Source of the DNA: Camelus ferus | Taxonomy: Eukaryota | Direction of reading: 5' to 3' | Length of the DNA stretch: 64,000 bases | NCBI RefSeq assembly: GCF_009834535.1 | Contig: NC_045696.1 | Coordinates: forward strand, 39,372,001-39,436,000 | Shown here: in pieces, positions 21,359 through 50,079 of the stretch | Numbering within the stretch: position 1 is the stretch's first letter | Layout: the number at the start of each line of letters is the position of its first letter | The notes under the pieces: generated by a model | Databases searched by the model: none | Seen by the model: only the letters and a program-made list of their open reading frames with translations | What the model was told of the DNA's origin: nothing | Program-made: the position numbers and the translations under genes

Positions 21359-21369
21359 CCACACACATT

Positions 21370-26300: not shown

Positions 26301-28600
26301 TTATACCTGTTATATTTGTTTTATATATTTAGGGTCCTATACTGGGTGCATATGTGCTAACAAGTGTAATATCCTCTTCTTGTATTGATCCATTTATCAT
26401 TATATAATGCTCTTCATTGTCTTTCATCATGGCCTTTGTTTTAAAGGACTGTTCACTTTTAAGCTATTGAGTTATATGTATATTTGGATATTTTGGATTT
26501 TAGCTCCTTATCAGATATATTATTTTCAATTATCTTCTCCCATTCAGTAGGTTGCCTTTTCATTTTGTTCATGGTTTCCTTTGCTGTGCAGAAGCTTTTC
26601 AATTTGATATAGTCTCACTTGCTTATTTTTACTTTTGTTGCTTTTGCTTTTGGTGTCAGATTAAAAAATCTTTGCCATGACTTATGTCATGGAGCTTATG
26701 ACCTATGTTTTCATCTAGGAGTTTTGTGTTGTCAGGTCCTATGTTCAAGTCTTTAATTCACTTAGAGTTAATTTTTCTATATGATACAAAATAGTGCTCC
26801 AATTTTATTCTCTTCTATGTGGCTGTCCAGGTTTCTCAGTGACAGTAATTAAAAAAAAACTGTCCTTTCCCCATTCTATATTCTTGGCTCCTTCATCATA
26901 AATTAATTATAACATATATGCATAGGTTTATTTCTGGGCTCTCTATTCAGTTCCATTGATTTATGTGTCTCTTTTATGCCAATATGCTGTTTTAATTACC
27001 ATAGCTTTGTAATACAGTTTGAAATTAGGGAGAGCGATGCCCCTGGCTTTATTGTGTTTTCACAATATTGCTTTGAGAAATACTGCTTTTTTCCTTTTTG
27101 TTTTCTGTATATCTCATGTATTTCTGTTCATCTAATTTTCTAATGCTTCATTAAGCGAGTATTTCCTAATGTAACATTTTAATTTCTTTAATAATTCACT
27201 CTTTCTAAATATCATATTATATCATATTATATCTTATCACATTTATATTGTATAGTTTTCTGTGATTGCTCTAGGGTTTAAACATACATCCTACAAGAAT
27301 CATCATCCAATTTATACTAGCTTAACTCTAGCAATATATAAAAATGTTACAACTATATAACTCTTTTTACTTTGTTTCATTTTGTGGTATTAGTATTATA
27401 TCATATTACAGGTATTAATGTTTCAAACACATATACATTGTTATAATTTTCACTTTGCAATCTGTTATCATTTCCTTAGCCCAATAAATTTTATTATGAC
27501 TCACCTTCTTTGTGAGTTACTGGTAATATATTACACACGTATAACATTTCTATAAGTTACAGGTCTGAGATTTTATTACATACATATTATTTTAGAAAAA
27601 TTGATATTTAAATCAATTATTAGGGAAAAAACATAAAAATGGGCATTTAAGTGGGGGAGGGTATGGCTCAAGTGGTAGAGTGCATGCTTAGCATGCATGA
27701 AGTCCTGGATTCAATGCCCAGTACCTTCTCTAAAACTACATAAATCTAATTACTTCCCCACCCTGCCCTGCCAGAATGAAAAAAGAAATAGGCATTTAAA
27801 CTGTTACAATTGCCTAGTTATTTTACTAATGCTCTTTGGCTTTCTGCATGGATTTGAATTCCTTCCTAAGCTACTTGCTTTTGGCTTGTAAATTTTCTTT
27901 AAATGTTCTTTTAATGTTCCTATAAGATACATCTACTAGCAACAGATTCTCTGTTTTTGTTTATTTGGGTGAACCCTTAATTTGCATTTACTTTTGAAAT
28001 ATAGCTTTACTGGAAATGAGATTCTTATCTGATGGGGTTATTTTCCCCCTGAGCACTATATATATGTTATCCAACTGCTTTTGGTCTAAATCATTTCTAC
28101 TGAGAAGTCAGCATTAAACTTCTTGGGGTTCCCCAATAAGTGATGGGTGATCTTCCTTTTGCTGTCTTCAAGATTTTCTATCTTTGAGTTTCAGCAGTAG
28201 TACTACGTAATACCTTTTTATTAATGTCCTTCCATTTTTTACTTTCTACTGTCTTTGAGTTTCAGAAGTATTAATATTATGTATCTCTTTATTAATGTCC
28301 TTGCATTTTTTACATTTTGAATACCTTAAACACCCTGGATGTGTAAGTCACTGTTCTGCAATAAACTTGGGAAGCTTTATCCCATTATTTCTTCAAATAT
28401 TTTTTCTGCTTCTTTCTCACTTTCTTCTCTTCCTGGTACTCCTATATGCATATGCTGATGCATTTAGTGGTATCCCTAATTTCTCTGACACTCTGTTGGT
28501 TTTTCTCCATTCTTCTCTCTCTGTATCTTTTGAAATGCATATTCCCTATAGATATAGCTTCAAGTTAACTCATTCTACCTTTTGTCAGTTCAAATCTATG
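23341..28600 (-). mobile_element. Series of antisense L1 fragments of several ages (ORF2 pieces to about 27080, then older ORF1/inter-ORF sequence)
   Basis: Continuous antisense L1 text with junctions near 23490, 25480, 26447 and 27080. Confidence 0.75.
27653..27785 (+). mobile_element. tRNA-derived SINE (camelid vic-1-like) with target-site duplication
   Basis: gggggagggtatggctcaagtggtagagtgcatgcttagcatgcatgaagtcctggattcaatgccc carries A and B boxes. TSD aaat(g/a)ggcatttaa at 27637-27650 and 27786-27799. Confidence 0.85.
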
Positions 28601-30894
28601 CATGAGAAGTTGGTTGCCAAGATGGTGGAGTAGGAAGACCCTAAACCCACCTCATCCCATGGGCACACCAAAACTATAACCATGTAAAGATAAACTGTTC
28701 ATGAAAATGGCCAGAAGACTAGAAGAAAAGGCATTCTAAAGCTAAGGACATGAAGAAGGAATCACACTGAAATGGATATAAGAGGAGGAAATGCAGTATA
28801 GTCAAGACCCATACCCTAGGTAAGTGACTCTTACATGGGAGGATAATTACAATCATACAGGTTGTCTCTGAGAGAGAGGAGTCTCAGTTCCACATTGGGC
28901 TCACCAGCCTTGGGAATCCTGTACCAGGAAGATGAGCAGATCTGAAGTCACACACAGGATGAAAATGAAGGGATAGGAAAAGGGTATTCCATACCAATGG
29001 AAATGAAAAGAAAGCAAAGGAAGCAAAGCTTGAATCACACAAAATAGACTTTAAAACAAAGACCATAATAAGGGAGAAAGAACATTTCACAATGATCAAG
29101 GCATCAATTATATAACAACATATAATAATTGTAAATAAATATACACCCAACAAAGGAACATCTGTATATACAAAGCATACATTAACATATAAAGGGAGAA
29201 ATTGACAGTAACATAATAATAGTAGGGGACTTAAACAATCCTGTTACATCAATGTACAGATCATCCAGATAAATGATCAATAAGGAAAAGACTGACCTTA
29301 AATGATATATTAGACCAAATAGATTTAACATATCTATATAGAACATCTCATCTAAAAGTAGCAGAAGACACAATCTTTTCAAGTGTACATGAAACATTTT
29401 CCTGAATAGATCACATGCTAGACCATAAAATGAGTCTTGGTACATTTAAGAAAATTAGAATCATATCAAGCATCTTTTCCTAACATAAGGCAATGGGATG
29501 AGAAATCAACTACAGGAAAAAACTGCAAAACACAGACAGAAGAGGCTAAACAATATACTACTAAAAAATGAAAAAACTAAAGAAAAAGTGAAAAAAATCT
29601 AGATACACATGAAAGTGAAAACACAATGATCCATAATCTATGGTATTCAGCAAAAGCAGCTTAGAGGAACATTTATACTGATACAAGCCTACCTCAGGAA
29701 ACAGGAAAAATATCTCAAATAAATAATCTAATCTCACATTGCAGAAATTAGAAAACGAAGAACAAACAAGTCCAAAATGAGTAGAAGGAACTAAATTATA
29801 AAGATCAGAGCAGAAAGTAATGAAATAGAGACTAAAAAACAATGGAGAAGATCAATAAAATTGAGATCTGGCTTACTGAAAAGATGAACAAAATTGATGA
29901 AACTTAGTCAGAGTCATAAAGAAAAAACTAAAGCCAAAATCAATAAAATCAAAAATGAAAAAAGAAAAGTTAACATCAACACCACAGAAATACAAAAGAT
30001 AATAAAAAATATTATGAACAATTATATACCAATCAAATGGACAACCAAGAATAAATGGACAAGGCTAGAAATATACAATCTACCAATACTGAACTATGAA
30101 AAATATGAATAGAGAAATAACTAGTAATGAAATTGAATCAGTAATTTAAGAATTCCCAGCAACAAGAGTAGGAACAGAGGGCTTCATGGATGAATTCTAA
30201 ACAACATTTAGAGAAGACTTCGCATCAATTCTCAAACCACTCCCAATTACTTGCAGGGGAAGAAATGCTTCCAAACTCTTTCCTTGATACCAGCCCCATC
30301 CTAATACCAAAACCAGACAAAGATACCATATAAAATGAAAAATTACAGGTCAATATCACTGATGAACATAGATGCTAATAATCCTCAATAAAACATTAGT
30401 ACATCATGTTTCAGTCTATATGATTACTAGTCTAAAGCAAAGAGATTTAGTAATGGGTTAATACATTTGAAAAACAAGGTAACCACAAATCAAAAGCATA
30501 AAATAGAATCACAAATACCAAAAAGAAAGGAAATAAAGCTTATACAAAAGAAAATTATCAAGCCAGACACACACACACAAAAGAAAGGAATAAAAAAGAA
30601 ATACAAAATCAACTGGAAAACAAAGTATAAAATGGCAATAAACACACATCTATCAATAATAACCATAAATACAGTGGACTAAATGATCCAAACAAAAGAC
30701 ATAAAGTAGTAGATTGGATAATAAAACAAAACTCTACAATATACTCCATACAAGAGACCCACTTTAGGGCAAAGGATACACACAGATTGAATGTGAGAGG
30801 ACAGAAAAAGATATAGCATGCAAATGGAAACGACAAGAAAGTGGGGGTAGCAATACTCATATCAGACAAAACAGACTAAAACAAAGGCCATACA

Positions 30895-31281
30895 AGACAG
30901 AAAGAGAAAGAAAAATACCATATGATATCACTTGTATGTGGAATCAAAAAAGAAAAAAAAAGATGAAATTATTTACAAAACAGAAACAGACTTACAGACA
31001 TAGAAAACAAACTTACGGTTACCAGGGGAGGAAGGGGGGGGTGGGAAGGAATAAATTGGGAGTTCAAGATTTGTAGATACTAATATATAAAAAATAGACA
31101 AACAACAAAAATATACTGTATAGCACAGGAAACTATATTCAATATCTTGTAGTAACTTATGGTGAAATGAGAATATGAAAACAAATATATGTATGTTCCT
31201 ATATAACTGAAGTATTATACTGTACATCAGAAATTGACACAACACTGTAAACTGACTATACTTCTACAAATATATGTGAAA
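30895..31281 (+). mobile_element. Short L1 3'-end insertion within the nested L1
   Basis: Perfect 17-bp TSD aaaacaaaggccataca at 30878-30894 and 31282-31298. Sequence parallels the 3'UTR at about 34478-34960. Confidence 0.92.
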
Positions 31282-34200
31282 AAAACAAAGGCCATACAGA
31301 AAGATAAATAAGGACACCATATAATGACAAAAGCAGCAATAAAAGAAGAGGCTATTATACTCATTAACATATATGCACCCAATATAGGAGTATCTAAATA
31401 TAGAAGACAAATACTAACAGACATAAAGGGACAAACTGGTGGGAATACAGTAATAGTAAGAGACTTTAACATCCTACATCATTGGACAGGACTTCCACAC
31501 AGAAAATCAGTAAGGCAATGAATGGCAACATTAGATGACACAACAGAACAATTAGATTTAATTGATATTTTTTAGAACATACATCCCCCAAAAACAGAAT
31601 ATACATTCCTTTCAACTGCACATGGAACATTCTCTAAGATATACCACATATTCAGACATAAAAGAATCCTCAAAAAATTTAGGAAGATAGAAATTATTTC
31701 AAACATCTTTTCTGATCACAATGGTATGAAACTAAAAATCCACCACAGAAAGAAAAACAAGAAAATGACTGCATAGAGACAAAACAACATGCTACTAAAA
31801 AAACAATGGATCAATGATGAAATAAAATTAAAAATTAAAAAATACTTTGAGACCAATGACAATGAAAATACAACCATGCACAATCTATGGGATGCAGCAA
31901 AAGCAGTACTAAGAGGGAAGTTCATAGTGATACAGGCCTTCCACAAAAAATAAGAACAACCTCAAACACCCTAACCTACCACCTAAAAAATTAGAGAAAG
32001 AAGAATAAATAAAACCCAAAGTCAGCAGATGGAAATAATAATAAAGATCAGAGAGGAAATAAATAAAATAGAAATTTTTTTAAATAGGAAAAATCAATCA
32101 AACCAAGAACTATTTTTTTGAAACAGGGGAATTCTACTAAATGTACAAACAAAAACTCATACCAATCCTTCTGAAACTCTTCCAGGAGATCGAAGAGGAG
32201 GGATCACTCCCAAACTCATTCTATGAAGCCACCATCACCCTGATACCAAAACCAGACAAAGACACTACCAAAAAAGAAAATTGTAGGCCAGTATCTCTGA
32301 TGAACGTAGATGCAAAAATTCTCAACAAAATATTTGCAAACAAAATTCAACAACACATGAAAAAGATCATACACTATGATCAAGTTGGATTCTCCCAGGG
32401 ACACAAAAATGGTTCAACATACTCAGCAATCAATGTGATATACCACATCAATAAAAGAAAGAACAAAAATCACGTGATCATCTCAATAGATGTAGAAAAA
32501 GCATTTGCTAAAATTCAACACCTGTTTATGATAAAAAAAAAAAAACTCTTACCAAAGTGAGTATAGAGGGAACATATCAAAATATAATAGAAGCTTATTT
32601 ATGACAAATCCACAAGCAACATAATATTCAACAGTGTAAAATTGAAAGCCTTCCCACTAAAATCTGACACAAGACAAGGATGTTCACTCTCAGCACTTCT
32701 ATTCAACATAGTATTAGAAATCCTAACCATAGCAATCATGCAAGAAAGATAAAAGGGATCCAAATTGGAAGACAATAGGTAAAAGTGCCACTATATGCAG
32801 ATGACATGATCCTCTGCATAGGAAACCTCAGAGGTTCCACATAAAAACTACTAGAGCTGATAAAAGAATTTGGCAAAGTATCAGGATACAAGATTAACAA
32901 ACAGAAATCAGTTGCATTTCTTTACACTAACAATGAAATATCAGAAAAGGAAAGTAAAGAAATAATCCCTTCTAAAATCACATCAAAATCATAAAATAAA
33001 ATACTTAGGAATAAACCTGACCAAGGAGGTGAAAGACTTATACGCAGAGAACTACAAAACACTGATAAAAGAAATTAAAAATGATTTAAAGAAATGGAAA
33101 GGTATCTGATGCTCTTGGACTGGAAGAATCAATATTGTTATAATGGCCATACTTCCCAAGGTAATCTACAGACTTAATGTGATCCCTATCATATTACCCA
33201 GGGTATTTTTCACAGAACTAGAACAAATAATCCTAAAATTTATACGGGATCACAAAAGACCCAGAATTGCCAAAGTAATACTGAAGACAAAGAATGAAGA
33301 AGGAGGAATAACCCTCCCTGACCTCAGACAATACTACAGAGCTACAGTAATCAAAACAGCAAGGTACTGGCACAAAAACAGATCTATGGATCAATGGAAC
33401 AGAATAAAGAGCCTGGAAATAAACCCACACACCTATGGTCAATTAATCTTTGGCAAAGGAGGCAAGAATATATGATGGAGAAAAGAAAGTCTCTTCAGCA
33501 AGTGGTGTTGGGAAAGGTGGACAGCTGCATGCAAATCAATGAATTTAGAGCACTTCCTCACACCATACTCAAAAATAAACTCAAAATGCTTTAAAGACTA
33601 AACATAAGACACTATAAACCTCCTAGAAGAAAACATAGACAAAACATTCTCCGACATAAATCTTACCAATATTCTCCTAGGGCAGTCTACCCAGGCAATA
33701 GAAATAAAAACCAAGAAACAAACAACAAAAAAAAACCCCCAAATGGAACCTAGTTAAACTTATATGCTTTTGCACAGCAAAGAAAATCATAAACAAAATC
33801 AAAAGCCTATGGAATGGAAAAAACTATTTGCAAATGATGCAACTGACAAGGGCTTAATCTCCAGAATATACAAATAATTCATATAACTGAATAACAAAAA
33901 ACAAACAACCCAGTCCAAAATGGGCAGAAGACCTAAACAAGCAATTTTCCAATGAAGACATTCAGATGGCTAATAGGCACATAAAAAGATGCTCAACATC
34001 GCTAAGTATCAGAGAGATGCAAATCAAAACTACAATGAGGTATCTCCTCACAGCAATAAGAATGGCCATAATGAAAAAGTCCACAAACAGTAAATTCTGG
34101 AGAGGGTGTGGAGATAAGGGAACCCTCCTATACTGTTGGTGGGAATGTAATTTGGTGTAGCCACTACGGAAAACAGTATGGAGATTTCTTAAAAAAACTA

Positions 34201-34772
34201 AAAATAGCTTTACCCTTTGATCCAGTAATCAACTCCTGGGTATATATCTGGAGAAAAGTCCAGTTTGAAAAGATACATGCCCTCGATGGTGATAGCAGCA
34301 CTATTTACAATAGCCAAGACATGGAAGAAACATAAATGTCCATTGACAGATGACTGGATAAAGAAGTTGTGGTATATTTATACAATGGAATACTACTCAG
34401 CCATAAAAAAATAATAAAATAATGCTATTTTCAGCAACATGGATGGCCCTGGAGAATGTCATTCTAAGTGAAGTAAGCCAGAAAGAGAAAGAAAAATACT
34501 ATATGATATCACTCATATGTGGGATCTAAAAAAAAAAAAAAAACGACAAATGAACTTATTTACAAAACAGAAACAGACTCACAAACACAGAAAACAAATT
34601 TATGGTTACCAAGGGGAAAGGAAGAGGATGGGACAAATTGAGAGTTCGAGATTTGCAGTTACTGACTGGTATATATAAAAGAGATAAACAAGTTTATACT
34701 GTACAGCACAAGAAACTATATTTGATATCTTGTAGTAGCTTAAAGTGAAAAAGAACATGAAAACAAACATAT

Positions 34773-34865
34773 GGGGTGTGGGTATAGCTCATTGGTAGAG
34801 TGCATGCTTAGTATTCATGAGGTCCTGGGTTCAATCCCCCAGCACTGCCATTAAAAAAAAAATAA
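34773..34865 (+). mobile_element. tRNA-derived SINE (vic-1-like, short form) in the L1 3'UTR
   Basis: ggggtgtgggtatagctcattggtagagtgcatgcttag...gggttcaatccccc plus A tail. TSD gaaaacaaacatat (34759-34772) and gaaaacgaatatat (34866-34879). Confidence 0.88.
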
Positions 34866-36339
34866 GAAAACGAATATATGTATATTCATGTATGACTGAA
34901 GCATTGTGCTGTACACCAGGAATTGACACAACATTGTAAACTGACTATACTTCAAAAAAAAGAATAAGAAAAGACTTTTTTTTAAAACCATTAGCACATC
35001 AAATTCAAAAATGCATTAAAAGAATCATATACCATGATCAACTGGGATTTATCCAGGGATGAAAAGGTTTATTATCCACAAACCAATCAACCATTAATAA
35101 ATTGAAAAAGAATCATATCTCAAAAAAGGAAGAAAACGAATATCTGTATATTCATGTATGACTGAAGCATTGTGCTATACACCAGGAATTGACAAAGCAA
35201 AAGCAAAAATAAACAAGTGGGACTACATAAAACTAAAAATATTCTGCACAGCAGAAGAAACCATTACCAAAGGGAATGGGAGAAAATATTGACAATACAT
35301 GTATTTGAAAAGGGGTTAATATCCAAAATACATAAGAAACTCATATAAATCAACAGAATAATAATAATAATAATATTAAAAGTGGGCAGAGAATGTTAAT
35401 AGACATTTTTCCAAAGAAGACATATACAAGGTATAAGAAAAAAGCTCAACATTACTATCCATCAAGGAAACACAAATCAAAACCATACTGAAATATTGTC
35501 TCACACCTGTTAGAAGAACTGTCATTTAGGAGACAAGAGATAAGTGTTTGCAATGATCAGAAGAAAAAGGAACCCTCATGTACTGTTGGTGGGAACGTAA
35601 ATTGGTACTATGAAAAACAACATTAAGGTTTTTCCAAAAATTAAAATAGGACTACCATATAATCCAGCAATCTCATTTCTGGTTATAGATCTTAAGAAAA
35701 TGAAATTATTATCTAGAAGCAATATCTGCACCCTCAAGTTCATTATAGCATTATTCACAACAGCCAAAACAAGAAACAATGTAAGGGTCCGTGGTGGAAT
35801 GAATAGATACAGAGAATGTGATGCACGCACACACAATGGAATATTATTCAGCCATAAAAAGAACGAAATCCTGCCATTTGAAACAATATGGATGAACTTT
35901 GAGGACATTATGCTAAACCTAAAAAAAAAAAAACCAATTCATAGAAACAGAGTAGGATGGTGGTAGTCAAGGGCTGAGGACCAGGGAAATGGCGCGCTGT
36001 TGGTCAAACGGTAAAAACTCCCAGTTATAAGATGACAATATAACTGTAGTTACAGTTAACGATACTGTTTTATACACTTGAAACCTACTGAAATAATAAA
36101 TAGTAAAAGTTCTCACCACACACCCAAAAAAAGGGTAATTATGTAACGTAAGTAACTAAACTCATGTCGCAATCACTTCACAATATACACCTGTATCAAA
36201 TCATTACACTGTACCGTTTAAGCTCACACAATGTTGTATGTCAATTATATCTCAAAAAGACAGCAAAAAAAAGAAGAAAAAAAAAGAAGAACAAGAAAGA
36301 AAGGTACTTACCACTATGCATGTACCTGAGGCTGTTCCT

Positions 36340-36800
36340 CAGGGGAAAAGCTCCGAGAACCGGCAGCAGCCGCCTCCTGAGATGAACTCTAGACTCGCGC
36401 CAGGAGGAACTGGCCCTGAGGGTATGCACTGCAACAGGGTGCTTGGGTGGCTGTGGCCTGGGACCTTGGCCGACCTCGGTGCGGTGCCCCAGTGCCCACT
36501 CAGAAGCTGGCACAGCTGCGCGGGACTTGCCGCCTCCGCCTCGGGAAGCAGACAGACCACGGGTCCCCTGCGCATGCGCACTTCACTCCCCCGTGCTGGC
36601 CTCGGGCGGTCGCGCGCCTGCTGTCTTTCTGCCAGGAGCGCAGTCGTCAGTGCCCCACACCTGGCGGGGCTCCTGGAGTGAGGTGCTTCTGCGTTGTGAC
36701 TCTGACCTGGGCGCTGGGGGAGGCTTCCGTCAGGCTTCAGTCAAGATTAGGATTTGCTTCATAGGTTGCATTGGCCAGACTGCTCACAAACGGGTCCGAG
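36340..36800. promoter_or_regulatory. Small CpG island / candidate promoter with a perfect NRF1 site
   Basis: About 30 CpGs counted by hand in about 450 bp of GC-rich sequence, in an otherwise CpG-depleted window. TGCGCATGCGCA at 36569-36580. Confidence 0.7.
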
Positions 36801-38077
36801 AGGAGGAGCACCCTGGTGTTTCTCATCCCAGGCATTTAATTTTGATGTATATTTTTGCTTATGGATAGGGAGATATTTCAGCTTAATATTTTTAAGTTAA
36901 AATGCTCTTTCCAATATGATCTCACTTTCTTAAAGGAATATGAGAAACATTCTGAAAGAATATATTTAAAATGACAGTAGTAACTTCACGTAGCCACCAA
37001 GGGTGTCTATTTCTTTAAATTTTAGCTTCCTTTTATACATTTCTGATTTTATGTCTTCGTTTCATTTTTTTCTATGAGTATGTATGAAAGTAATCATTTT
37101 ATAGTAATAACTTTTCATTCTAATGAATGTAAATTTATAAAGAACTGGTGGACATTGGCATTCTTTTCTGCCGTAAAAGTTACCTTCACTTACTGTTTTT
37201 AATGCCTGTGTCAGATTGACATGTCCAAGTCAGGTTGGCTTGATGCAGAATCTACTCCTCAGGTTGGAAAGCCACCTTAAGTCAGTGATGGAGTCAGTGT
37301 ATTGCTCATTTACTAAAAGAGAAAAGCCAGCCTGTTTCTCCCAAACACTAGGGCTTGAAGGGACCAATCATAGTAATCTCACTTCACCCTCCCTGGAAGT
37401 GCTCTGATTATGGGCTGATTCAGAGCCCCAGCAGGAACCCAGAATAGAGAGTGATGAGGTTGAGCAACCAGCTATAATGAGCCCAGGAACCTGCACATAC
37501 ACTTACACAAGTGGAAGGGAGACCAGATAGGAGAACCAAGGGGAGAATGGAACCAGAGAGAGCTGCTCTAAGTAAACAGATCTGGAGAAGATGAGGAAGC
37601 AGACAGCAATAGGGATAGACACAGACTGGAGTAAGGAAAATGGAAAAGAGAGTGAGGTAGAAGAAAGGGAGCTACACAATGAAGGGAAATACTGTAGAGG
37701 CTACTCCAGAGTGTGTGTCACTCACTTAAGGAGAAATGAAATGACACCGAGCTTGATCTAGTGGTGATTACATTAGATGAGTATATTAACAGGTAAAAAT
37801 GCATTGGACTGCACACATAAGACAAATATATATATTACATGTGCATTATATCTTAATTTTTTAAAATACATCAAACTTCAATGGTGAACTCAGATTCTGA
37901 TAGCTGAAAGGCCCCTGGTAATTGAGGAAGGAAGTCAAGAAGAATCCATTCACACTAACAGGGAGCAAAGTAAAAACAAAAACTTGAAGAAAAAAATTAT
38001 GATTTTCCAAAAAAGTACCAAATGGCAATTCCTTTTCTTTCCTTCAACTCAAGCTGCACCGCTATCTTAATCGTCAA

Positions 38078-38230
38078 GATTATAAATATAAATAACTTGA
38101 TATATATATATATCAATATAAATTTATAATATCAATAACTGATATTTATGTTTAATATAAATAACTTGATATTTATATCAATTATACAAATATATCAAAA
38201 TATTGATATGTATATAATATTAATATAAAT
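38078..38230. repeat. AT-rich low-complexity tract with internal direct and inverted repeats
   Basis: aatataaataacttgatat occurs twice; (TA)n run; ttgata/tatcaa inverted units. Confidence 0.8.
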
Positions 38231-38739
38231 GAGATTCTGATATAGGGCACCAAAATGAAACAACTTAAAGATGCTTCTTTTTTTTCAGCTCCAGATTAGA
38301 AAATACTTAAGATTCTTTTGGATAAAGAAGTCATATTCGCTAAAAATCATTAATACCTCCTTGAAGATGAAACTTTTGTCTTTTGAGGTTTTGTTGTTGG
38401 TACTAAGTTATATTTGTATAAGGCTTCTGTTCTCAATCAAAGCAGCCATTGTTATTGTTACTAAGTGCTTTTGTAGTTGGCAGGCCTCACATCTTACAAG
38501 AGAAGGAGGGCAAGAAATATTTATTGACTAAATTACTGTGGTTTAATGGTGCTAGGAATTCAAGCCAATAACAATTCAAGGTACCATTTTAAAGCTGAAG
38601 ACAAGAGTGCAGAGGTCCTTTATGAAACAAACCTTTGATACAGACTATCTAGGGACCAGGAACTAGAGTAATTTGCCTGAGATTGGATTGTTGTCATTTC
38701 CTTAATAATAAGAATTGGTTATCAGCTTGCTGGAGAGAT

Positions 38740-39100
38740 TTTCTAGGGCTCTTTGTTTTACATAATGAAAGTGTGATTCTTGAAGGATAGTCTTAGCCCT
38801 CCTTGCTAATGATGTCTCTGGCTCAAAGGGCTGCCTCAATACAAACTGTTTCTCATTCTGTCACCCCTTTACCAGAAATCCCTACCGGTTTTCTAATAAT
38901 GTCCATTGTGCATTGTTTGCAAATGAAACAAAACTTATTTGCAACTGTGTAACTTATCCAACTCCCAGTCTCTAAGGGCCAAACTTTTAATAAAGTCTCC
39001 AGTGAGGACAGTCAGGTTTACTACACATTTCACTGGATATCATTAATTCGTGCAAATCTCCTCCAGCTAACTAGTTGCAGTTATAATTAAGTATGTCATA
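38740..39100. promoter_or_regulatory. Candidate olfactory receptor enhancer (homeodomain and O/E motif cluster)
   Basis: TAATGA (38763), TAATGATGTCTCTGG (38807), TCTCTAAGGG (38969), AAACTTTTAATAAAGTCTCC (38981-39000), TCATTA (39040) and TAATTA (39084), in sequence not recognised as a repeat. Confidence 0.4.
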
Positions 39101-39539
39101 CACAGACATAAGTAATTTTAGTGGCATGCTCTAATAAATGAAAAGACACAAGCATTAAACAAGACAGCAGTATTTAATAAAATTACTACTCTAGTAATAT
39201 TAAGTTTCATAGTGTCTGCAAAAGTATCCACTATTAATGAAAGCTTGTCTTGGCTCCCCTTCATACAGTGTTTCTGTGTTAAAAGAACTGTTCACTGGTT
39301 TGACCAAGCTCTCTTACGTATCCGTAAGACAAAATTTCCACATTTTCCTGTGGGACCAGCTCAGTGTTATGGTGTACTTCTGACCACCTGTTTGCTGCAA
39401 GCAACACCCTGCTCTACACTTCTCAGGACCCACTCAATGAATACACCATTTGACAGATAGTACCATCTCAGTATATAGAGTCAGTTTTAGAAAAAGCAAA
39501 TTTTACCTATTAGTCAAAATAACTTGATCAAAATTGATC

Positions 39540-41000
39540 TAATTGATCTCAAGTTTGTGGCCGACTTGTGCAGAGGCTGAAACATAGGAGCTGAGAATCA
39601 TGGGATCCAGGCCTGAGCAAGCCTAGTAGAAGTAACTGACATCAGAGATGTTATAAAGGAAGAATCCATGGGACTTGATGGCAACTTGATAACAGGTTGG
39701 ATATGAGCAGTGAGGATAATAGCACTGTCTTAGGTGACCCTGAATGTTTCAAGGGGACGTCAAATGTCTTCCTGTTGCTTTTAAGATACACTTGAGAATC
39801 TTGAGCCTGGACCACAAAGCCCTGTGATATCTGACCCCCTGACTCCCGTTCTAGCGTCACTGACCACCACTATCCCTCTAATTTGCTGTGCTACAAGTGC
39901 ACTGACCTCTCAATTCCCTGAACCCCCAGGCTACTTCCCAACTCAATGCTTCCAAATGCTACCTACGGCATAAATGCCCTTTGTCTTGCTTCTTCCCCAA
40001 TTTTGTGGTTAATTCATGTACTCTCAAGGCTTCAATTTATGGGCTGTTCAGTCTGAGAATTTTTTCCTGCCTCCATCCCCAGATGAATGAGTCACCTATT
40101 ATATGCACCTGTACTTTTCTGTACTTTTCTTCATGGCACTAAATACAATTGTAATCATTCGTTTAATGTGTCTCTCCACCACTAGATGATAAGCTCCATG
40201 AGGGCAGGGACCAAGTTTAACTTGCTCATTGCTTATCCCAAAGACTAGCACAGAGCATGTCATGTAATAGTCAGATGACACTGCTGACAAAGACATGAAA
40301 GGGTATTTGAGTGAACAAACGGCATCTACAACCTGGATTACTGTTTCCCTTAGTCTTCCCCTGTTATCTGGTTAACGCTTATGTACTTCCAGCCCCCAGC
40401 TAAGAGGATGCTTTTCCAGGGATGCTTTTCCTGACCAATCTCTGTCACATGCTGTGATAGCCTAGGGGAATTTGGAGGGAAAAGTCCCTCCTGGTAGAAG
40501 ATAATTCTCCTTTCAAGTATGGCGAGTTTGAGGGGATGATTAGATATTATGGAAATATCCCATAGGTATCAGTTAGGTGGAGTTATTAGGGCTGCAAATA
40601 AAAATTTGGGAATCAGCTGCATTCAGTGGTGAGTCACTAATTTCTACGTGAAAAGAAATGCTCAGACTTGGAACTTCAAAAAATGCTTATGATGAAATGG
40701 AAAGTAACAGTTTTAAGAATGAGAGAATATTTAATCTTTCAAATATTTTAGAGAGGTCAAGGAGAACAAAGGTCCAAGAAAGATAATAGGACTTGATGGA
40801 CAGGTAGCTGGAGCAGTGTGATTTTCACAAAATAATGGGAATGAAAACTCTAGGTTGCAGATGATTAAAGAGAGTTAATGAAAACAGCAGGGGTAGAACA
40901 CTTTTTAAGAAGTTTGGTGGTAAAAATAGAAAGAGGTGAGACAGGAACTGAAGAGTTGACAATGAGGTCAGTTAATGTTTTCCAAAATAGGGCAGAACAA
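39540..41000. mobile_element. L2 fragments in both orientations
   Basis: Clear L2 3' end ccaccactagatgataagctccatgagggcagggacc (about 40176-40212), with purine-rich antisense tracts on either side. Confidence 0.75.
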
Positions 41001-41189
41001 TGACGCTTTCGGGGGGGAAAAAAAACCAACTTTGATAGCGGCAAAGTCTGAAGTCAGTTGAATCTTTTGACCACTAACTTTTTGGGGAAATATTGTCCCC
41101 TTGACTTTTACTGCATTATCCTACGTCTCTTCCTCTCCCTCTTGCTCTCTCTTTTGCTTTTCTCCTCCCTTTTCTCCCTACCCCTAGAC

Positions 41190-41504
41190 TTGTGCCAGCC
41201 AATAGGCACCAAGCAGATAGCTATTGATTACTTGAACTGTGTGTATTCTGAATTACAGTGTGCTGTAAGTATAAAGAAACACACCAGATTTTGAAAATTT
41301 GGTATAAAAAAGTAATGTAAAATCTTATTAATAATTTTGTATTGATTACATGTTGAAATGATAATATTTTATACTTATATAATTAAATAAAATGTTTATT
41401 ATTAAAATTAAATTCATGTTTCTTTTTACTATCTTCTAATGTAATTACTAGAAAATTCTCCATTACATATGTGACTCACAGGATATTTCAAATGGACAGC
41501 ATTG
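41190..41504 (-). mobile_element. MER33-like hAT-Charlie non-autonomous DNA transposon
   Basis: tgtgctgtaagtataaa...acaccagatttt...gattacatgttgaaatgataatatttt...ttacatatgtgactcaca...tggacagcattg matches recalled MER33 in reverse. Confidence 0.8.
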
Positions 41505-41509
41505 CTCTA

Positions 41510-42910
41510 GGCTTTCTTACCTGTATCCTCTCTCTCGGCTTCAGAAACCACTTCTAGACTGTTGGCTCTTACATCTTCACAGAAACGTACGATCAGACTG
41601 CTCCTCTGAACCTCAAACCCTTGTATTCAACTGCCAATTAGACATCTTCTTAACGTCTCAAAGGTACCTCATACCAAGTGTCTGTGAAATCTTACCTCCT
41701 TCTTGCCTCTTTCTCCTTCTTGCCTCTTTCCCCAAGCCTGATCCTCTCCCAGGGTTTCCAGGCTCAGTGAGTCATCATCACCCTGTTGCATAAGCCAGAA
41801 ATTCAGATTCTTCCTCTCTGAACCCTACAATCTACCACAAAACCCTGCTCATTCTACATCCTAAAAATTTCTCCAGTTTGTCCATTCCAGTCATCACCAC
41901 CACCTAGTCCATGCTACCATAATCTCTTTCCTGTGCAGTTTGTCCACATCTAATTTTTCCAGCTTGCAAACTAGTCTTCATGCTTCATCCAGAATTAGTT
42001 ATAAAATATAAATCTGACCATGTCATCCTTCTATATAAAAACTTACAATGTGTTTTTATTGCTATCAGAATGAAGTCCCAGATTCTTAATATTGTTTAGA
42101 AAACCCCCACATTATCTGTACCCTGCCCACAGCTCCTTTTTCCCTTAAACCATTTTGCCCTTAACTCTCTTTGCCTCAATGTTTCTTTCAGACCTTGAAA
42201 TTATAATGTTCACTCCAGAAATAAGGCCTTCGTATATGTTATTCTCACAACTCACCCACTCCACTTTTCCCTAGTAAATTGTGTTCAACCTCCAAATTTC
42301 AGCTCAGTCATCACTTTTTCAGGAAATCTTTCTGTCACCTCCCCTAGCACCCCATCTACCTCAAGTAATAATGATGGTGGTGGTGGTGGTGGTAACAGCA
42401 TTTAGCATTTATTGAACATTTACTACATATTAGACTCCTTCCTATGTTTTACAAATAATTCACTAGGTCTTCAAAACCACCTTTTTAGTCTCCATTTTCA
42501 GAGTATAATCCATGATAATATCCATTTTTCTGATAAGGAAGTTGACTAACAGAGAGGTTAAGTGATCTTCCCATAATCAGCAACGAAGTGGCGTAGCCAG
42601 GATTTAAAATTAGGTCCTGTTTCCAGCCAGAACCCACAGGGTTAACTACTACATTATAATACCTTTTCAGATCAGGCCAAACCTCTCTATTATAGGCTCT
42701 GTCTCCAATAGCCTGGCCTTCATAATAGTGAAGTCATAATTTTAAATTCATTTAAATGATTGTTTGGTTAATACCTGTCTCCTGTAACTTTTTTCAATTC
42801 TATAAGAGGAGAGGAAGCAGATACCATGTCTGCATTTGCTTATTGCTTAACTGTAGTGCCTAGTATTGTGGCTGACATAAAATAGACACAAAATGCATGT
42901 GAGTAAAATT
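41510..42910 (+). mobile_element. L2 interrupted by a MIR
   Basis: Pyrimidine-rich L2 text (aaatctgaccatgtcatcc; tagtgcctagtattgtggctgacata) on both sides of the MIR. Confidence 0.75.
42365..42660 (-). mobile_element. MIR SINE
   Basis: Antisense MIR core tccatttttctgataaggaa...acagagaggttaagtgatcttccc...agccaggatttaaa. Confidence 0.75.
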
Positions 42911-43476
42911 ATACCAAATAACTGTGTGTATATATGAAGAAGAAAGTAAGGGAGGAAGACAAGGGGCCAGGGAGGAGGAAGGGGAGGAGAGAGGAAGAAA
43001 AAGAAAGCAAGCTCCATGTCTCCAGTTAGGAATTTCTGTACTGAGCACAACTTAGTCTAACACTTTCTGTCTCTTAATTCCTACATCTGTCTTAGGAAGT
43101 CTTCTGACTATGACAACAACAGATTCGGGGATTTTTGTCTGGCAGGTACTGAATGACTTTAGAACTTCTCCTTAGTAATCACTTGATCATGAATAGCTAG
43201 TTTATTTGATATTATTTTGGCAGAGGACCTCAAAACTGGATCAGTCATTAAGCAATCTACCTATAAGATAATTACGGTTTCTCTAATACACCTTACACTC
43301 TGGCCAGACTGGGGGCTGCTTTCTGTTCCTCCAACAATCCACGAGCTTTCATGCCTTTGATACTTTGCTTAGCATTCACTTTCCAATCTTCTCTGCTGAG
43401 AAAATATCTGCATATTTTCAAGGCCAGTGTCAAATATCCTCTCCTGGGTAATCTATAATAAAACACGCCCCACCCC

Positions 43477-43494
43477 TGTGTGTGTGTGTGTGTG
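43477..43494 (+). repeat. (TG)n microsatellite
   Basis: Seen directly. Confidence 0.9.
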
Positions 43495-45019
43495 TATTTC
43501 TTATAGAGATGCTGGGCCTAATGGTAGGATATGTTAACATGATTTCTTTGTTAGGGATATTGGGTCTGTTCTGTGGTTAAGGTTGGAAGCTCCCCTGAAG
43601 GTTTGGGCGTTTGTGGTAGTGTCAGTCTCAAGGGGAAGAGCTCAGCCCTTAGGCAAAATACCAGAAGGGGAGCCCCTGCCCACTCTCCTGTCTCTCACAT
43701 TCTTGGAAATAGATCTTCTGTGGCTGAGCCAGGCCTAAACTTCCAGGTGACTGGGAAAAGACGGCATCTCCCTCTCAAGGGCTGACTTAGAGATAAGTAA
43801 GGACGCCCTGCTGTAAGGAACCTTAAGTACAAGATGACTGACTCACTCATCTAAACCAGATTATCAAGATCAGCAGCATTCAGGCCATTTCAACACCTGG
43901 ATCTGTCACAATCGGTTATGAGATGCATCACAATTAATGTGTTTCTAACAACAAAGTGCCATAGATTAACATGATTTACTTTTTTATAAAACTAGAGTTG
44001 ATTCCAAACTAACTCAGTAATACCTTCCTCACTCCTTTACATTACAGTACACTATCTTGAATGGGAGCAAATGAAGAGGCATCATGGCTAGCCAGTGGGC
44101 AATTATTCATTACCTGACAAACCCCATAGGAGTGTGCCAGGCAGTCAAAATCTTCTGCTGACGCTGCCTTCTCAGTGGGGGAAGGTTTGGGACTTACTCT
44201 TCTACTTGTACATTACCACATTTTGTTTCCCAATGGTTATCTCCAAGTCTAGTCAGGGCATGTACAAATGATCCTTCTTAAACTGTCCTACAGGAAATCA
44301 CTTGGACCAGAGTGCAATGGGAGAGAAATGCCTTCTTGTGGTCACCATGGTTTTGGCAACAGTGGTGACTACTTCCCCAGGGGAGACATGAGAATCTGGG
44401 GAAAGGTTTGGAGAATCTGTTTTGCCCCTCCCACATGGAGATTTGCTCTCTACTGCCAAACTAGAATGTTTTTTTATTATGGAAACTAGAGTTTTCTTCC
44501 AGAAAGCTTTTTTAACACTCCCAGGCAAATTAAGTCACTCCCATCTGTTCTCCCATAGTTCCCAATGTATGATTATACTATAGATTCCTGTCACTTTGCA
44601 TTCTAATTATTTGTTTACATGACTGCCTCCCCAGTACATTGAGAAGTCACTGCAAACAGGGATTGAGCCTTATATGGCTTTGAATTTACTATTGTTTATT
44701 AGCACTATGCTTGGCACTGCCCACTCTTGAACAATGGGTGAAACACGACCAGAAGAGTAAACCAATATTCATCACATTAAGTTTGGAGTCTTTTTTTTTT
44801 GTTATCTTAAGTTTTTTAAAATACCAACCTTAAAGTCATATTTATCCCACAGCTTTAATCTAAAATGGTTTGTGACGGGCACCCAAACACTTGTTTATTA
44901 ATCTGTCATTTATGCCACATCAAACATGCAAAATGTAGCAGAGAAAAAGCAATGAGTCATACACAGAATTGTTTTTCTGAAACTCAGATTTGATAGACTC
45001 AGTCCCTTGACAAATTTAT

Positions 45020-46590
45020 TCAGGACCTACTAAATAGAATTCAAGCTCCTTGATTTGGCACTCTGACCTTATCCTTTTCAGGATACATCCTGTAATTTCT
45101 ACAGCACTGTATTCTGTCCCCTCCAGACATTCTGTATCCCAGATAATCTGGTATAATCTAAACCAGAGAGTCCCAGAAGGCGCTCTCTCAGGCACCCTTC
45201 TCTTTTCTGCCTTGTCACTCTCCCTAAATGATCTCACTCAGTTCCAAGTCTTTAAATATAAATGCTGATGACTCCGAATCTCCAGCTTTGTCTTTTATAT
45301 TCAATTACCTGTTTGACATCTCCACTTAGATAACTGATAAGCACCTCAAATATTCTCAAATATTTCTAGCTTTATACTCCCCCCAAAAATGTATTCCTCC
45401 TCCAGTCTCCTTTAACCCAATAAATGCTACCTTGTTCCCCTCAGATGCTCAAGACAAAAAAAATCTAGGCATTTTCCTTATTCTTTTAACCTCGATTCAA
45501 ACAGAAATCATTAGCAAATCCTGTTGACTCATCCTCCAAAACATAATGCAATCATCTGCATTCTCCATGTCCACGGCTATCACCCTTATTCTGGACCACT
45601 GCAATATCCTCCCAGCTGCTCTCCCTACTTTCATCCTCACCCTGCATGATCCATTTTCTGAGAAAATGTGAAAAGGTAATGCCATTTCTCTGCTTTAAAA
45701 AACTCTGGTTTGGTAGGCAGAATAATGCTCCACCCCAAAAATGTCCACATCCTAATCCTCAGAAATGGTGCGTATGTTATGTTACATGACAAGGGGGAAT
45801 TAAATACTCCTAGTAACCTTCAGGTGGGCCCAGTGTAATTTTTTAAATGTTGAAAACAGAAGCAGAGGAGTCAGAATCGGAGTGGTACAGTGTGAGAAAG
45901 ATTTAACTGGCTATCTCAGGCTTTGAAGATGGAAAGCAGTCGTGAGCCAAGGAATGCAGTCAGACCCCAGAGGCTGAAAAAGACAAAGAAGCGGATTCTC
46001 CTCCGCAGCCTCCAGAAAGGATGTTGACACCTTAATTTTAGCCCAGTGAGAATCATTTCAGATTTCTAACCTCCAGAATTGTGAAAGAATAAATGTGTTG
46101 TTTCAAGCTACTGAGTTTGTAGCAATTTGTTAGAGAGGCAATAGGAAACTAATACACCCTCCCAAGGCTTCTCATTGAGCTGAAAATAAAATGCAAACTC
46201 CATACCCTGTGTTACAAACCCTGCAAGATCAACTGTTCAATCCCATCATCAACCACTTTCCACTGCCTTTTATGGGTTCCGCAAACACGCAGAACTTATT
46301 TCTGCCTTAAAGAGTTTTCACTATTGCCTCTGTACCTAACATGCTCCTCCCCAAACTGCCATGACTGGCTTCTTGCTACTCATGTCTGAGCCTGCCTGTT
46401 CACCTTTCCTATAGACGTTTTCCAAATCACCTGATCTGAAGTAACTCCCAGTCATTCTTTATCACATAACTCCGTTTTACTCTCAGCAAAGCACTTACTA
46501 GTTAGTTACTTTTCTTATTTATGTATTTGTTTACATTTGCTTCCCCAGTCTCCTCAATGAGCATGGAAGCTCCATGAGAATAGAATTTAT
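45020..46590 (+). mobile_element. L2 interrupted by an MLT1 LTR
   Basis: L2 text (tgtttgacatctccacttagataactgataagcacctcaaa; ggaagctccatgagaatag) on both sides of the LTR. Confidence 0.8.
45708..46156 (+). mobile_element. MaLR solo LTR, MLT1D-like
   Basis: Starts tggtaggcagaataatg and ends aataaatgtgttgtttcaagc...gcaataggaaactaataca. Confidence 0.88.
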
Positions 46591-46595
46591 AATAG

Positions 46596-47009
46596 TGATA
46601 ACACAGAGTTGCTGATTTGCAAACTGGCCCCTGGACACAGAGGGCAAGGAGAGATCAAAGAAAGGCAGACCACTGCGGATTGGTAGGTGATAGTTTTAAT
46701 AAGCAAGAGAACTTACATACAAGGCTTGTCTTGGGCAGCTACAAGACAAGTAGATCTCCACTTCCACTTGTCAGAATCTTAAAAGTTTATACAGAGGCCT
46801 TAACTGGGCTTAGTCTACGTATACCGCTCAGATGGTCTCAACACCACCTTGCTCTCTCAAGACTGTGCCCTTGGAACAAGTCCCACTGTGGGAAAAGTGG
46901 GCAAGAAGTACATTCGAAGGACAGGGGAGAGGGTGACTACCCAATTGCCCAGGTCCAGGTTTCAGGTCAACCAGCAGTCATGTCTTCTTGATGACCTCCT
47001 CCTCTAACA
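46596..47009 (-). mobile_element. Solo ERV LTR (ERV1-like), 414 bp
   Basis: TG...CA termini and 4-bp TSD ATAG (46592-46595 and 47010-47013). Minus-strand TATAAA and ATTAAA occur in the expected order. Confidence 0.75.
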
Positions 47010-47459
47010 ATAGTATTTATTGCATGAATGTATGAAACAATGGTGCAAGAAATGGCAGCTGTTTTGTGGATACTGAATGTAAGGACTTTTCAAAATGTTC
47101 AAGTAAGCCTAAAAATTTTCATAAATTTGTAAGAAAGTCAAAATAACAAGAAATGAGCTACATGATCCTTTTCACCAACTCCATGAGTCTTTCACTGAGC
47201 TCACATGGTTTCATGGGTAAGAGCTGAGCTAGGAGCAACATTCATCCTTCTCCCACAGTTCCTTTGGTAGAGCCTTGTGCCCAGGAAATCTTAAGCTCTC
47301 CTTGTAGGAGAAAGTCTCCCCATTGTGCTATATCAACACACTTGGTCCTGCATCTATATAGTAATGTGGCCCTCCTCTGAAATAATCACACTGCTCAAGA
47401 GTTAAATTCTGAGGGAAATTCTTTATTTCTGCCTTTTTTTTTTTTTTTTTTTTGCTGTG

Positions 47460-48110
47460 TCTTCAGGGTACATCTCAGAAATATATATAATCCTGATATA
47501 AATGAGGTTGTAATCACACTGAGGGAAATAAGACCTACACCCATGAAGTTCCAGAGGATCACACAAGGCAAATACTGAAACCTGAGAAGGTGTTATATGG
47601 TAATATGAGTTGGGAAGTGAGAAGGAGATAGATGAGCTTGTCCTACATAGATCTTGATTTGACCATTAAGGGAGGGGTAGGATTTAGACAGATGGGGGGA
47701 AATGGTGAAGGTAATATGGTTAAGGCAAAAGGCACCAAATGAAGAATGAAAGTGACTTACTCAAAAGGCCATGAAGAGAAGGGCTTGGCTTAGGGATGGT
47801 AAATGGGAGTGCAGAATACAAGGAGGTAAAGTGAACTCAGATGAGGTAGGGTTAGGAAAATCAAGATATATAATTAACCAAACAAATTAAGAGTTGAGTT
47901 TGATGGGCAACAGGGATTCATTACACTATAAATGATGGGAAAGTTCTAAATTAGGGAATATTTTGAAGAAAGAAATCTTTTCAGAAGCAGCTTCTGGATT
48001 TGCAAGAAAAATGTAAAGGTTATTCTAGTAACTAAAGTTTAAGATTAAAGACATTATATATGTAATTTCAAAAGAAGATTCTAGAAATTGTATATTGACA
48101 TTAAAAGAGA
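47460..48110 (-). mobile_element. Degenerate L2 fragment
   Basis: Purine-rich L2-like text (gggtaggatttagacagatgggg; gagtttgatgggcaacagggattcatt). Confidence 0.5.
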
Positions 48111-48279
48111 TGGGAAATGTGCTACTTTAAGACGTCTGCTCACACAACTTCTCCCCTCAGAGTCAGTAAATCCTAGCTCAGTTCCCACTTCCTCTATGAA
48201 GCCTTTTCTCACCAATCCAGTGGGAATTTTTTCTTCCAATTAGAATTTTATATTGAGATTGGTAATAAGGATAAACAGT

Positions 48280-48646
48280 ATAAACTCGCATGAATTAAAA
48301 ATCAAAACATGGCCTTTAAAATTTGCTTAGAAATGGGCATTTTACTTACTCTTTAGGTCTCAAAGGATACACTTAATTATCCCAGTTTAGGATGTTTGTA
48401 ATGTTTAGGAGATTAGGTCTCTCAGGCTATACTCTGATGTCAATGCCAAGTAAATCCCTTTAGAATTATCTAAAATATTTGAACCATTCTCTACCAATGA
48501 CATAAATATCATCATTGACTTGTTGGTAGAAATATTCTCCTAAATAATCAGAAGGATAGAATTTTATTTCTGGATTTACTTTAAAAGCCATCATCAGGTA
48601 ACCAACTAGCCTTTATAAAACTCTTACTGGGGAAATCCAGGTGAGA
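48280..48646 (+). promoter_or_regulatory. Putative promoter and non-coding exon 1 of the OR5K1-like gene, donor CCAG|GTGAGA (intron starts 48641)
   Basis: TAATTA and O/E-like TCTCAAAGGA sites. TGATGTCAATGCCAAGTAAATCCCTT (48435) is paralogous to 12270, and the donor context aaatcYag|gtRag is shared. Confidence 0.58.
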
Positions 48647-49202
48647 AAGCATTTAACTTTTTTTCGGTAGAAATATTAACCTCCAGAAACATTTAAGTTC
48701 TTTAAGGTTTTTTCCTTACAATTCTTAGAGGTTTTTTTAAATTTTTAAGTTCCTTGAAGTCTCTCCTCTTCCTTAAGATCCATTGTGTAAAAACTGCACA
48801 AATGACTATAGTTTGTTTGCATCACTTCTGAATTTAGAGAAGCCTAAATTTACCTATAATAAATAAGCAAAGGCATACATTTATAGTAATAACAGAAAAC
48901 CCTAGCAAAGCTTTTGGGTTTTTTTTTTTTTTTTTAATAATGTGGTTTGCCGTATAACTTACAATTTAACAGATGAAATGGATTATTAACCTGTATGATG
49001 AAATGATGTTTAAAATTGTGTCAGACATTCCCTATGTATTAAATAAATTATATGAAGAATAATATATTTTAACCCCCTGATGTAATTTTAGGGAGCTTTT
49101 TAGTTTATGTTTTGATTTTTAGAGAAATAAAATATCAATGTAAAACTTATTTCTGTCCGATTAATTATCAACTGGGAAAAGTGAAAGTAAACTATGTTAT
49201 GT

Positions 49203-49358
49203 GACTTCAAGTTGGCAAGTGCAAGGCATTTAATGAAAAAACTCATTCAAATTATATAGCTTTAAAATGTTCATTTTTTAGACCTCAGGTTACCAAGAGT
49301 AAGGCATTTAATGAAAAAATAACAATTCAAATCATATAGATGTCAAATGTTCATTTTG
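49203..49358 (+). repeat. Diverged 78-bp tandem duplication
   Basis: gacttcaagttggcaag...aaggcatttaatgaaaaaa...aaatgttcatttt recurs at 49281. Confidence 0.85.
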
Positions 49359-50079
49359 AATTTTGTTTCTAAAGGTATCAGTCACAAATAGTCTGAGATT
49401 TAAAAGTTAGTAACTGTTTCAGTAACAGCCAAAAGGAAAGAGATCTCCTCTCCAAAATGTTTTCCCTCTGTTCCAGGAATGTAGAGTGTAGTTATGGTTG
49501 ATACATATCCAGTAAATTATCAATGTGGAAATGTCCAGGAGAGTCAACTGATCTTCTAAGAAAGGATGTAGCACAGAGCAGACATTTACTAAATAACAAA
49601 TCAATGAATAAGTCATTCTTGAGTTAACTAAAATAAATGAAGGTAGGTTGAAATAAAGCATTCCCCAACAGATTAGAATTCTTGGTCTATAAGGAAAAAT
49701 ATAAGGGATAAATGAGGTTTAAAAATACACTGGAAGTTTAATAAACGTGAGCATCATAGAATCAGAATATTGTGAAAACACTTGACGTTCAAAAGAGTAA
49801 AACTTAACACTGAAGAATTATTGCTTTAGAGGCAAGTGGTCTCAAGAATGCATCACCACAAGAGGTGAATATATTCCTGAATGGTCTGAGATACCTGCAA
49901 GATTGTCAGCAAACTCTTACTATTTATAACCATGAATGTCATTATCACCAGAACGGAGCAGACACTTCCTCAACAGATCCATTGTGATTTAGCCACTACA
50001 GAATTGTAAAGTGCAGAAAACATTAGTTGGATCTCCAATAATTATTTGGGGGTTATCAAGTTTTAAACTAAGAGCATGT

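Follow-up and report, generated by a model that had tools for sequence, protein, structure and literature searches.

An orphan CpG island with a perfect NRF1 palindrome in a camel olfactory receptor cluster, a candidate promoter of a leftward non-coding RNA

About half of all CpG islands (CGIs) are orphans, and 42–60 % of the human orphan CGIs show signs of promoter function, often tissue-restricted and non-coding, in the datasets reported by Illingworth et al. 2010 (PMC2944787). For olfactory receptor (OR) genes, the data given in PMC3247239 for 314 start sites in the mouse place no CGI closer than 2 kb, and OR promoters are described as being without CpG islands, islands as such being found in all isochore types (PMC10463633). 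The transcription factor NRF1 is sensitive to methylation and is found in the nuclei of male germ cells (PMC12420836), and its motifs are enriched at the island-type promoters of expressed retrocopies (PMC4772013). OR transcripts in testis can, moreover, share exons with lncRNAs, as reported for OR4N4 (PMC3566163).

Here we describe an island of this kind within an OR cluster of Camelus ferus, in a 64-kb stretch of DNA that is referred to as the window. In a maximal-scoring CpG scan of the window, the sole segment recovered was 36354–36797. The island (36354–36798) holds 30 CpGs at a GC content of 0.65, as the original prediction of about 30 CpGs in about 450 bp had it, and its CpG observed/expected ratio (o/e) was computed as 0.62–0.64. 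Over the slightly wider interval 36340–36800 (461 bp), the 30 CpGs correspond to a GC content of 0.649 and a CpG o/e of 0.619, compared with 0.35 and 0.13 for the window as a whole, and all other 461-bp windows (step 50) contain at most nine CpGs, with a mean of 1.6. The island is single-copy, i.e. blastn found no second copy within the 64-kb window. By the definition of Gardiner-Garden and Frommer (at least 200 bp, GC >50 % and CpG o/e >0.6), the segment is a CpG island (445 bp, GC 0.652, o/e 0.635). By that of Takai and Jones (at least 500 bp, GC at least 55 % and o/e at least 0.65), it is borderline, with an o/e of 0.58–0.60 in three 501-bp windows centred on the island, while a 500-bp window that starts at 36461, and so includes AT-rich flank, attains 0.66. 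TpG and CpA are both in excess (o/e 1.39 and 1.33, respectively), as in an island of intermediate density, which suggests that the island was partly methylated at one time or in one lineage.

The nearest coding exons lie 15 and 20 kb from the island, which is therefore remote from any coding promoter in the window and an orphan in this sense, as judged from the window's coding exons and Pfam. On the right, the plus-strand coding exon of OR5K1 (52032–53000; 320 of 322 residues identical to dromedary OR5K1) begins 15.4 kb from the NRF1 site and is preceded by a splice acceptor just before 52021, i.e. 11 nt ahead of the ATG. A run of 28 A bases at 53013–53040, starting 12 bases past the OR5K1 stop, is likely a retro-element tail. 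On the left, 20 kb away, a second plus-strand OR coding exon (15305–16231) is identical to a Bactrian camel OR5K1-like protein at 303 of 306 residues and groups with OR5K3-like proteins. A Bactrian camel gene model of 368 aa (P0014) combines this OR (15305–16222) with a distant piece (22664–22889) as a C-terminal extension, a fusion that is probably a prediction artefact.

The two sides of the island differ in their repeats: L1 copies cover 0.88 of 16232–36305, to its left, whereas the cover by the window's own L1 copies is 0.00 in 36306–50000, to its right. The island thus lies where an L1-free block begins, 15.4 kb ahead of OR5K1. This block of 13.7 kb, headed by the island, is unlike the typical L1-dense OR spacer; its GC content (0.39 over 36861–47500) is somewhat above the 0.35 of the window, and the repeats seen in it by eye are presumably old ones of MIR, L2 and LTR type. 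The surroundings of the island are therefore less odd than had been implied. The block lies upstream of OR5K1 and may hold the OR5K1 promoter or an enhancer; a search of 36306–50000 with one strict pattern for a Lhx2–Ebf composite gave no match.

Among the sequence motifs of the island, one stands out. The perfect NRF1 palindrome TGCGCATGCGCA, with two CpGs, is present at 36569–36580 as predicted and occurs nowhere else in the window; when the island was shuffled 20,000 times with its dinucleotides preserved, the 12-mer arose only twice and a looser NRF1 pattern eight times. At the sequence level, 36569–36580 matches the NRF1 consensus palindrome. The two GC-box-like words on the plus strand (GGGCGG at 36604 and GGCGGGG at 36663, together spanning 36604–36669) are likewise where they had been reported, yet are at chance level, the hexamer being found in 45 % of the shuffles. 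On the minus strand, upstream of the putative leftward start, there are an ETS-like CGGAAG (36724–36729) and a CCAAT word (36770–36776), each of which is also at chance level (24 and 50 % of shuffles, respectively). Because words of these three kinds are common in shuffles, they carry no weight. Three CCT(C/G)AGG words at 36325, 36337 and 36415 (36325–36421), which we take to be AP-2-like, were noticed post hoc and recur in 50 of 20,000 shuffles.

One of these three words underlies the site that had been labelled O/E-like. The sequence TCCTCAGGGGA is indeed present at 36336, but it has two mismatches to TCCCNNGGGA and one to the consensus YCCCNNGGGR, and 31 sites in the window match the consensus equally well; the label is therefore unsupported and the site is at chance level. 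A Lhx2-type site was not found in the island. OR promoters and enhancers are characterized by AT-rich DNA that is poor in CpG and carries sites of the O/E and homeodomain types, features that this island, with a GC content of 0.65, does not share. The island is not an OR promoter or enhancer. The alternative role that had been suggested for it, that of a boundary element, found no support either, since the one crude CTCF pattern that was tried had no match and the O/E-like site is at chance level.

That the CpGs of the island were retained through germline hypomethylation, as originally proposed, is supported by two sets of internal controls, i.e. the decayed L1 promoters of the window and the tails of sister L1 copies. 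The three L1 5′UTRs in the window, with a GC content of 0.44–0.54, have a CpG o/e of 0.04, 0.04 and 0.0. The first, on the minus strand at 5540–6630 (o/e 0.04 in 5540–6300), is alone in having a weak likeness to the island, and the second, on the same strand at 20345–21370 (o/e 0.04 in 20345–21100), has none. The left edge of the island is sharp and is formed by the decayed poly(A) tail (36255–36303) of an old plus-strand L1 that extends from a 5′ start near 28605 to 36305, antisense to the inferred transcript, and differs from its sister copies by about 28 %. A younger L1, at about 30410–34990, interrupts this element and is flanked by a near-identical 12-bp repeat at 30394–30410 and 34989–35001. 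In the 3′ end of the old L1 (35780–36262, plus strand), which abuts the island as a CpG ‘shore’, CpG o/e climbs towards the island through 0.09, 0.13, 0.60 and 0.84. The abutting tail holds 11 CpGs, compared with two and six in two sister copies, at a constant GC content (0.344, 0.341 and 0.342, respectively). Several of the shore CpGs are absent from the sisters and thus look like new CpGs that survived. Relative to the sister tails, the excess has a one-sided p of 0.02–0.03, which we use in place of the p of 2e-5 obtained against the window background. The effect of the shore is modest, as a sister L1 3′ end (61881–62400) likewise reaches an o/e of 0.52.

Private changes in 35780–36260 number 28 in the island-adjacent tail and 74 and 72 in the sisters; further left, the counts are 35, 37 and 39, with no deficit in the island-adjacent copy. 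This deficit may reflect a lower mutation rate near the island or be an artefact, this copy having served as the pivot of the alignment. In the L1 fragment at 61324–62400, the 5′ part (61324–61533) is inverted relative to the 3′ part, presumably as in twin priming. Two tRNA-derived SINE heads (27657–27729 and 34778–34850) were recognized as Rfam tRNA matches and belong, we assume, to a camelid SINE family.

If the island is a promoter, its surroundings favour transcription to the left. A strong 5′ splice donor on the minus strand (GTG/GTAAGT, 36306–36314, first intron base 36311) lies at the left edge of the island, 264 nt from the NRF1 site, and is the predicted end of a leftward first exon. 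It ranks among the top 22 of 6,294 GT sites when scored with an approximate matrix; a donor as strong has a chance of about 3 % in any given 200 bp, and this one was spotted post hoc. A weaker alternative (CAG/GTACAT, 36320–36328, minus strand) has its first intron base at 36325. Plus-strand donors within the island are weak, with scores of 4.4–5.9, and donors scoring at least 6 within 2.5 kb number five leftward versus two rightward, the first rightward one at 1.2 kb. The first poly(A) signals occur at 1.5 and 2.4 kb, with none early on the rightward strand to enforce a direction, so that the leftward asymmetry is one of donors alone. The putative non-coding first exon would cover about 250 nt of the minus strand (36312–36560), its right end being a guess, just downstream of the NRF1 site.

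Searches for a coding or structured product were negative. No Pfam family scored above the cut-off in three frames of the island and 58 frames of 36306–52000; a LAP1_N match in one of the 58 frames (E 0.0068, 16.5 bits against a cut-off of 25) is expected by chance and was dismissed. Protein homologue searches with the open frames of the island gave no coding homologue, a phmmer match to a repetitive protein (P0001) falling from E 1e-4 to E 0.21 in pairwise comparison. The putative exon has no Rfam match, the only matches in the window being the two SINE heads, located elsewhere, and no stable fold is predicted for it (z 0.54; 136 of 200 shuffles as good).

Public sequencing data add nothing to the case for expression. 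Of the 24 sequencing runs listed, 20 hold part of the island's words. The best three RNA rows contain 0.50–0.70 of them and come from one study, labelled reproductive system, a fourth run of which holds 0.07; the contig totals of these best rows amount to about 0.4 of a genome. For the seven runs labelled or guessed as RNA that hold 0.24–0.70 of the island, contig totals (the figure given in ‘million letters’ being taken by inference as the contig total) are 0.25–0.46 of those of genome-wide DNA runs. Across 14 contig rows labelled or guessed as RNA, the mean share of the island is 0.27, compared with 0.30 for the contig total divided by 1,990 M, and the remaining seven rows, with small shares, count as no evidence. 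As the share is no higher than expected from carry-over, genomic carry-over or pervasive transcription suffices to explain it, and the RNA matches were rejected as support. Hence, of the predicted active non-OR promoter, a promoter of non-OR type is the likeliest reading of the anatomy, i.e. the NRF1 site and the donor at the left edge, while the word ‘active’ is unsupported by RNA matches at carry-over level.

Relatives of the island were also sought in other DNA collections. An 18-mer over the NRF1 site hit 34 metagenome loci, none of which (0 of 34) matches the island beyond 24 bp; with matches this short and a CpG o/e of at least 0.9 in all of them, these loci are chance microbial matches. 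Viral contigs and prokaryote genomes yielded no match, and a piece of L1 ORF1 compared with viral contigs gave no mammalian L1 among 37 candidates.

Taken together, we favour the reading, at a probability of about 0.5, that the sequence represents an orphan CpG-island promoter of intermediate density with a predicted leftward non-coding RNA. Germline methylation has very probably spared the island over a long period, with protection reaching about 500 bp into the L1 tail, and its CpGs would have escaped deamination as a result. In germ cells or in the early embryo, the palindrome would be occupied by NRF1, which binds only unmethylated sites and would help keep the patch open. RNA polymerase II would then start just left of the NRF1 site and elongate leftward, a step for which the odds are about even, and a first exon of about 250 nt ending at the 36311 donor would yield a spliced non-coding RNA, running antisense through the L1s towards the OR5K3-like gene. 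Expression would probably be limited to testis or a few cell types, and elsewhere the island may be partly methylated.

A different origin, which could still leave the island acting as a promoter, is that it is repeat-derived, i.e. the surviving middle of an old minus-strand L1 5′UTR, or of the promoter of another TE, which was spared methylation in the germ line, perhaps thanks to its NRF1 site. We consider such an origin possible, if unlikely. It is encouraged by a likeness, in the expected orientation, to the L1 5′UTR at 5450–6700, with a z of 2.0–2.3 under plain scoring (1–7 of 100 shuffles) and of 3.8 under CpG-aware scoring (1 of 200 shuffles; the best of 18 comparisons), but the alignment register shifts by about 120 bp between the two schemes and the second L1 UTR, in the same orientation, gives a z of only 0.0–0.4. 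An initial z of 5.1 from a lenient shuffle fell to about 2.2 with di- and trinucleotide shuffles. Comparison of the island with the L1s by nhmmer gave no match and the best blastn match had an E of 0.27, so that the claim that the island does not resemble the L1 5′UTRs of the window stands for both programs and has to be qualified only by this one weak and unstable likeness. A profile of three L1 5′ starts had no match near the island, where the pattern for a YY1-type start motif was also without a match, and the right flank, with z of 0.0, 1.0 and 2.5 against the three UTRs, is at null level against two of them; a match of this flank to an L1 5′ start was discarded, as 47 of 100 shuffles did as well. 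The arrangement of the neighbouring elements speaks for an L1 origin, an older minus-strand L1 piece ending at 28593, where the plus-strand L1 begins. A 9-mer at both ends of the old plus-strand L1 (28596–28604 and 36314–36322), such as 0.2 % of random 36-mers share, is possibly a worn target-site duplication, with 10 non-A bases between it and the tail. If so, the older minus-strand piece and the island were neighbours before the insertion, and the strong donor at 36311 is younger than the insertion. NRF1 is, in addition, reported on unmethylated L1 and LTR promoters in mouse germ cells (PMC12420836). The repeat-derived reading and that of a leftward promoter differ mainly in origin and can overlap. 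Somewhat less plausible still is a promoter-like but unproductive island, where a small patch is kept free of germline methylation by NRF1 and short, unstable two-way RNAs arise on which nothing downstream depends. The lack of enrichment in RNA runs, the intermediate CpG density and the TpG and CpA excess are in line with this, as is the share of about 40–58 % of human orphan CGIs without a promoter sign in the datasets of PMC2944787; against it, a perfect 12-bp site and a strong donor have been kept beside an L1 that is about 28 % diverged, which may hint at selection.

CGI promoters are often two-way, and the island might serve as an alternative, non-olfactory promoter of OR5K1, from which a rightward RNA would be spliced over 15 kb into the OR5K1 acceptor. 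OR5K1 does lie on the same strand with its acceptor 11 nt before the ATG, and long-distance OR leader exons, like those of the OR4N4 transcripts, are known in testis (PMC3566163), but this reading is very unlikely in view of the weak plus-strand donors of the island (4.4–5.9), the annotated first exon of human OR5K1, which is 6.3 kb and not 12–15 kb upstream of the coding exon (PMC7055050), and the tblastn comparison with five annotated relatives, none of which has a segment on the island, the models showing coding parts only. Even less probable is the 5′ end of a retrocopy or TE that is still too young for its CpGs to have been lost. An A-rich tail is a favoured L1 target, and the island begins right behind one; yet the stretch from the island to 53013 has no poly(A) run of at least 9, a search for a matching target duplication was negative and the open frames of the island have no protein homologue, although protein searches would miss a purely non-coding parent. 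By its parent homology, poly(A) and target-site duplication, the island thus does not qualify as a processed retrocopy, and the match to a young TE or retrocopy that the original prediction had named as speaking against it did not appear within the window. The gradient in the L1 tail, moreover, includes CpGs absent from the sisters, which takes time, and TpG and CpA are already in excess. The most improbable reading of all is that the island has no part in regulation and owes its composition to a recombination hotspot with GC-biased gene conversion, which would account for a local GC peak in AT-rich DNA. The abutting L1 tail gained CpG and not GC, and its ratio of AT-to-GC to GC-to-AT changes (25:22, compared with 44:37 and 45:35 in the sisters) shows no AT-to-GC excess, so that biased gene conversion is not indicated; the NRF1 site would also be left unexplained.

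It is tempting to speculate further that the island is conserved throughout the mammals as an NRF1-driven promoter, from which a long antisense RNA equivalent to human RP11-325B23.2 would run leftward, in germ cells or in the early embryo, over the entire OR5K/OR5H cluster; the island would then mark the edge of the L1-free 14-kb domain before OR5K1 and help set the chromatin state of the cluster. We regard this as a long shot. The human lincRNA (RP11-325B23.2, ENSG00000251088) has a clone name in common with human OR5K1 (RP11-325B23.1); we take AC117473.1 to be the same gene and assume its end to lie some 12.5 kb ahead of the coding exon of OR5K1. The lncRNA AC117473.1 overlaps hg38 chr3 positions 98,328,069, 98,333,424 and 98,452,415 according to a fusion paper that disregards strand (PMC9434886), and the last of these positions, which the RNA reaches at least, is between OR5K3 and OR5K1 (PMC7055050, also the source of the OR5K1 clone name). 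Reported expression of RP11-325B23.2 amounts to about 290–630 counts in a B-cell line (PMC9586123) and to 0 TPM in 28 of 29 GTEx tissue groups, a list without testis (PMC10236148); the supplements of PMC12963367 yielded no match for it. Orthology between the putative camel RNA and a human lincRNA spanning the cluster is thus a lead only. In 12 human nasal samples, OR5K1 reached 32–435 counts and its neighbours at most 15 (PMC7055050), and a conserved antisense RNA, if real, could bear on this expression of OR5K1 far above its neighbours.

Orphan CpG islands number in the thousands per mammalian genome, and a camel island by itself matters little. This one nevertheless offers a clean within-locus case in which CpGs were protected in the germ line, the controls being the decayed L1 promoters and the tails of the sister L1s. 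Depending on conservation and activity, its single, editable NRF1 site could also be a route to ask whether a non-OR promoter and antisense transcription within an OR cluster affect OR silencing or choice. In the literature searched, from which subscription papers were mostly absent, we found no paper on the island.

Several known systems bear comparison with it. Grandi et al. 2015 reportedly described ‘sloping shores’ of CpG retention in repeats beside islands, and CpG in the abutting L1 tail climbs towards the island in the same way, the camel case differing in that it consists of one L1 set against two sister copies (p about 0.02) at the level of sequence. With the OR enhancers known as ‘Greek islands’ and with OR promoters, it shares a position among OR genes, the receptor 15 kb away being highly expressed in the human nose. 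Those elements are, however, AT-rich and free of CpG islands and carry O/E and homeodomain sites, while the camel island is without a good O/E or Lhx2-type site, and a CGI inside an OR cluster is atypical of OR promoters as described (PMC3247239, PMC10463633). The NRF1-bound germline promoters, including unmethylated L1 and IAP copies (PMC12420836), resemble it in the perfect NRF1 site with its CpGs and in the intermediate density of the island; the promoters in that report belong to young retrotransposons of the mouse that are released when DNMT3C is lost, whereas no young repeat is evident in the camel island and NRF1 binding is predicted. Finally, while the camel island was recognized from its sequence and the orphan CGIs of Illingworth et al. 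2010 (PMC2944787) by experiments that captured unmethylated DNA, the camel island, like those CGIs, lies far from an annotated coding start and has the makings of a tissue-restricted, non-coding promoter, as predicted here.
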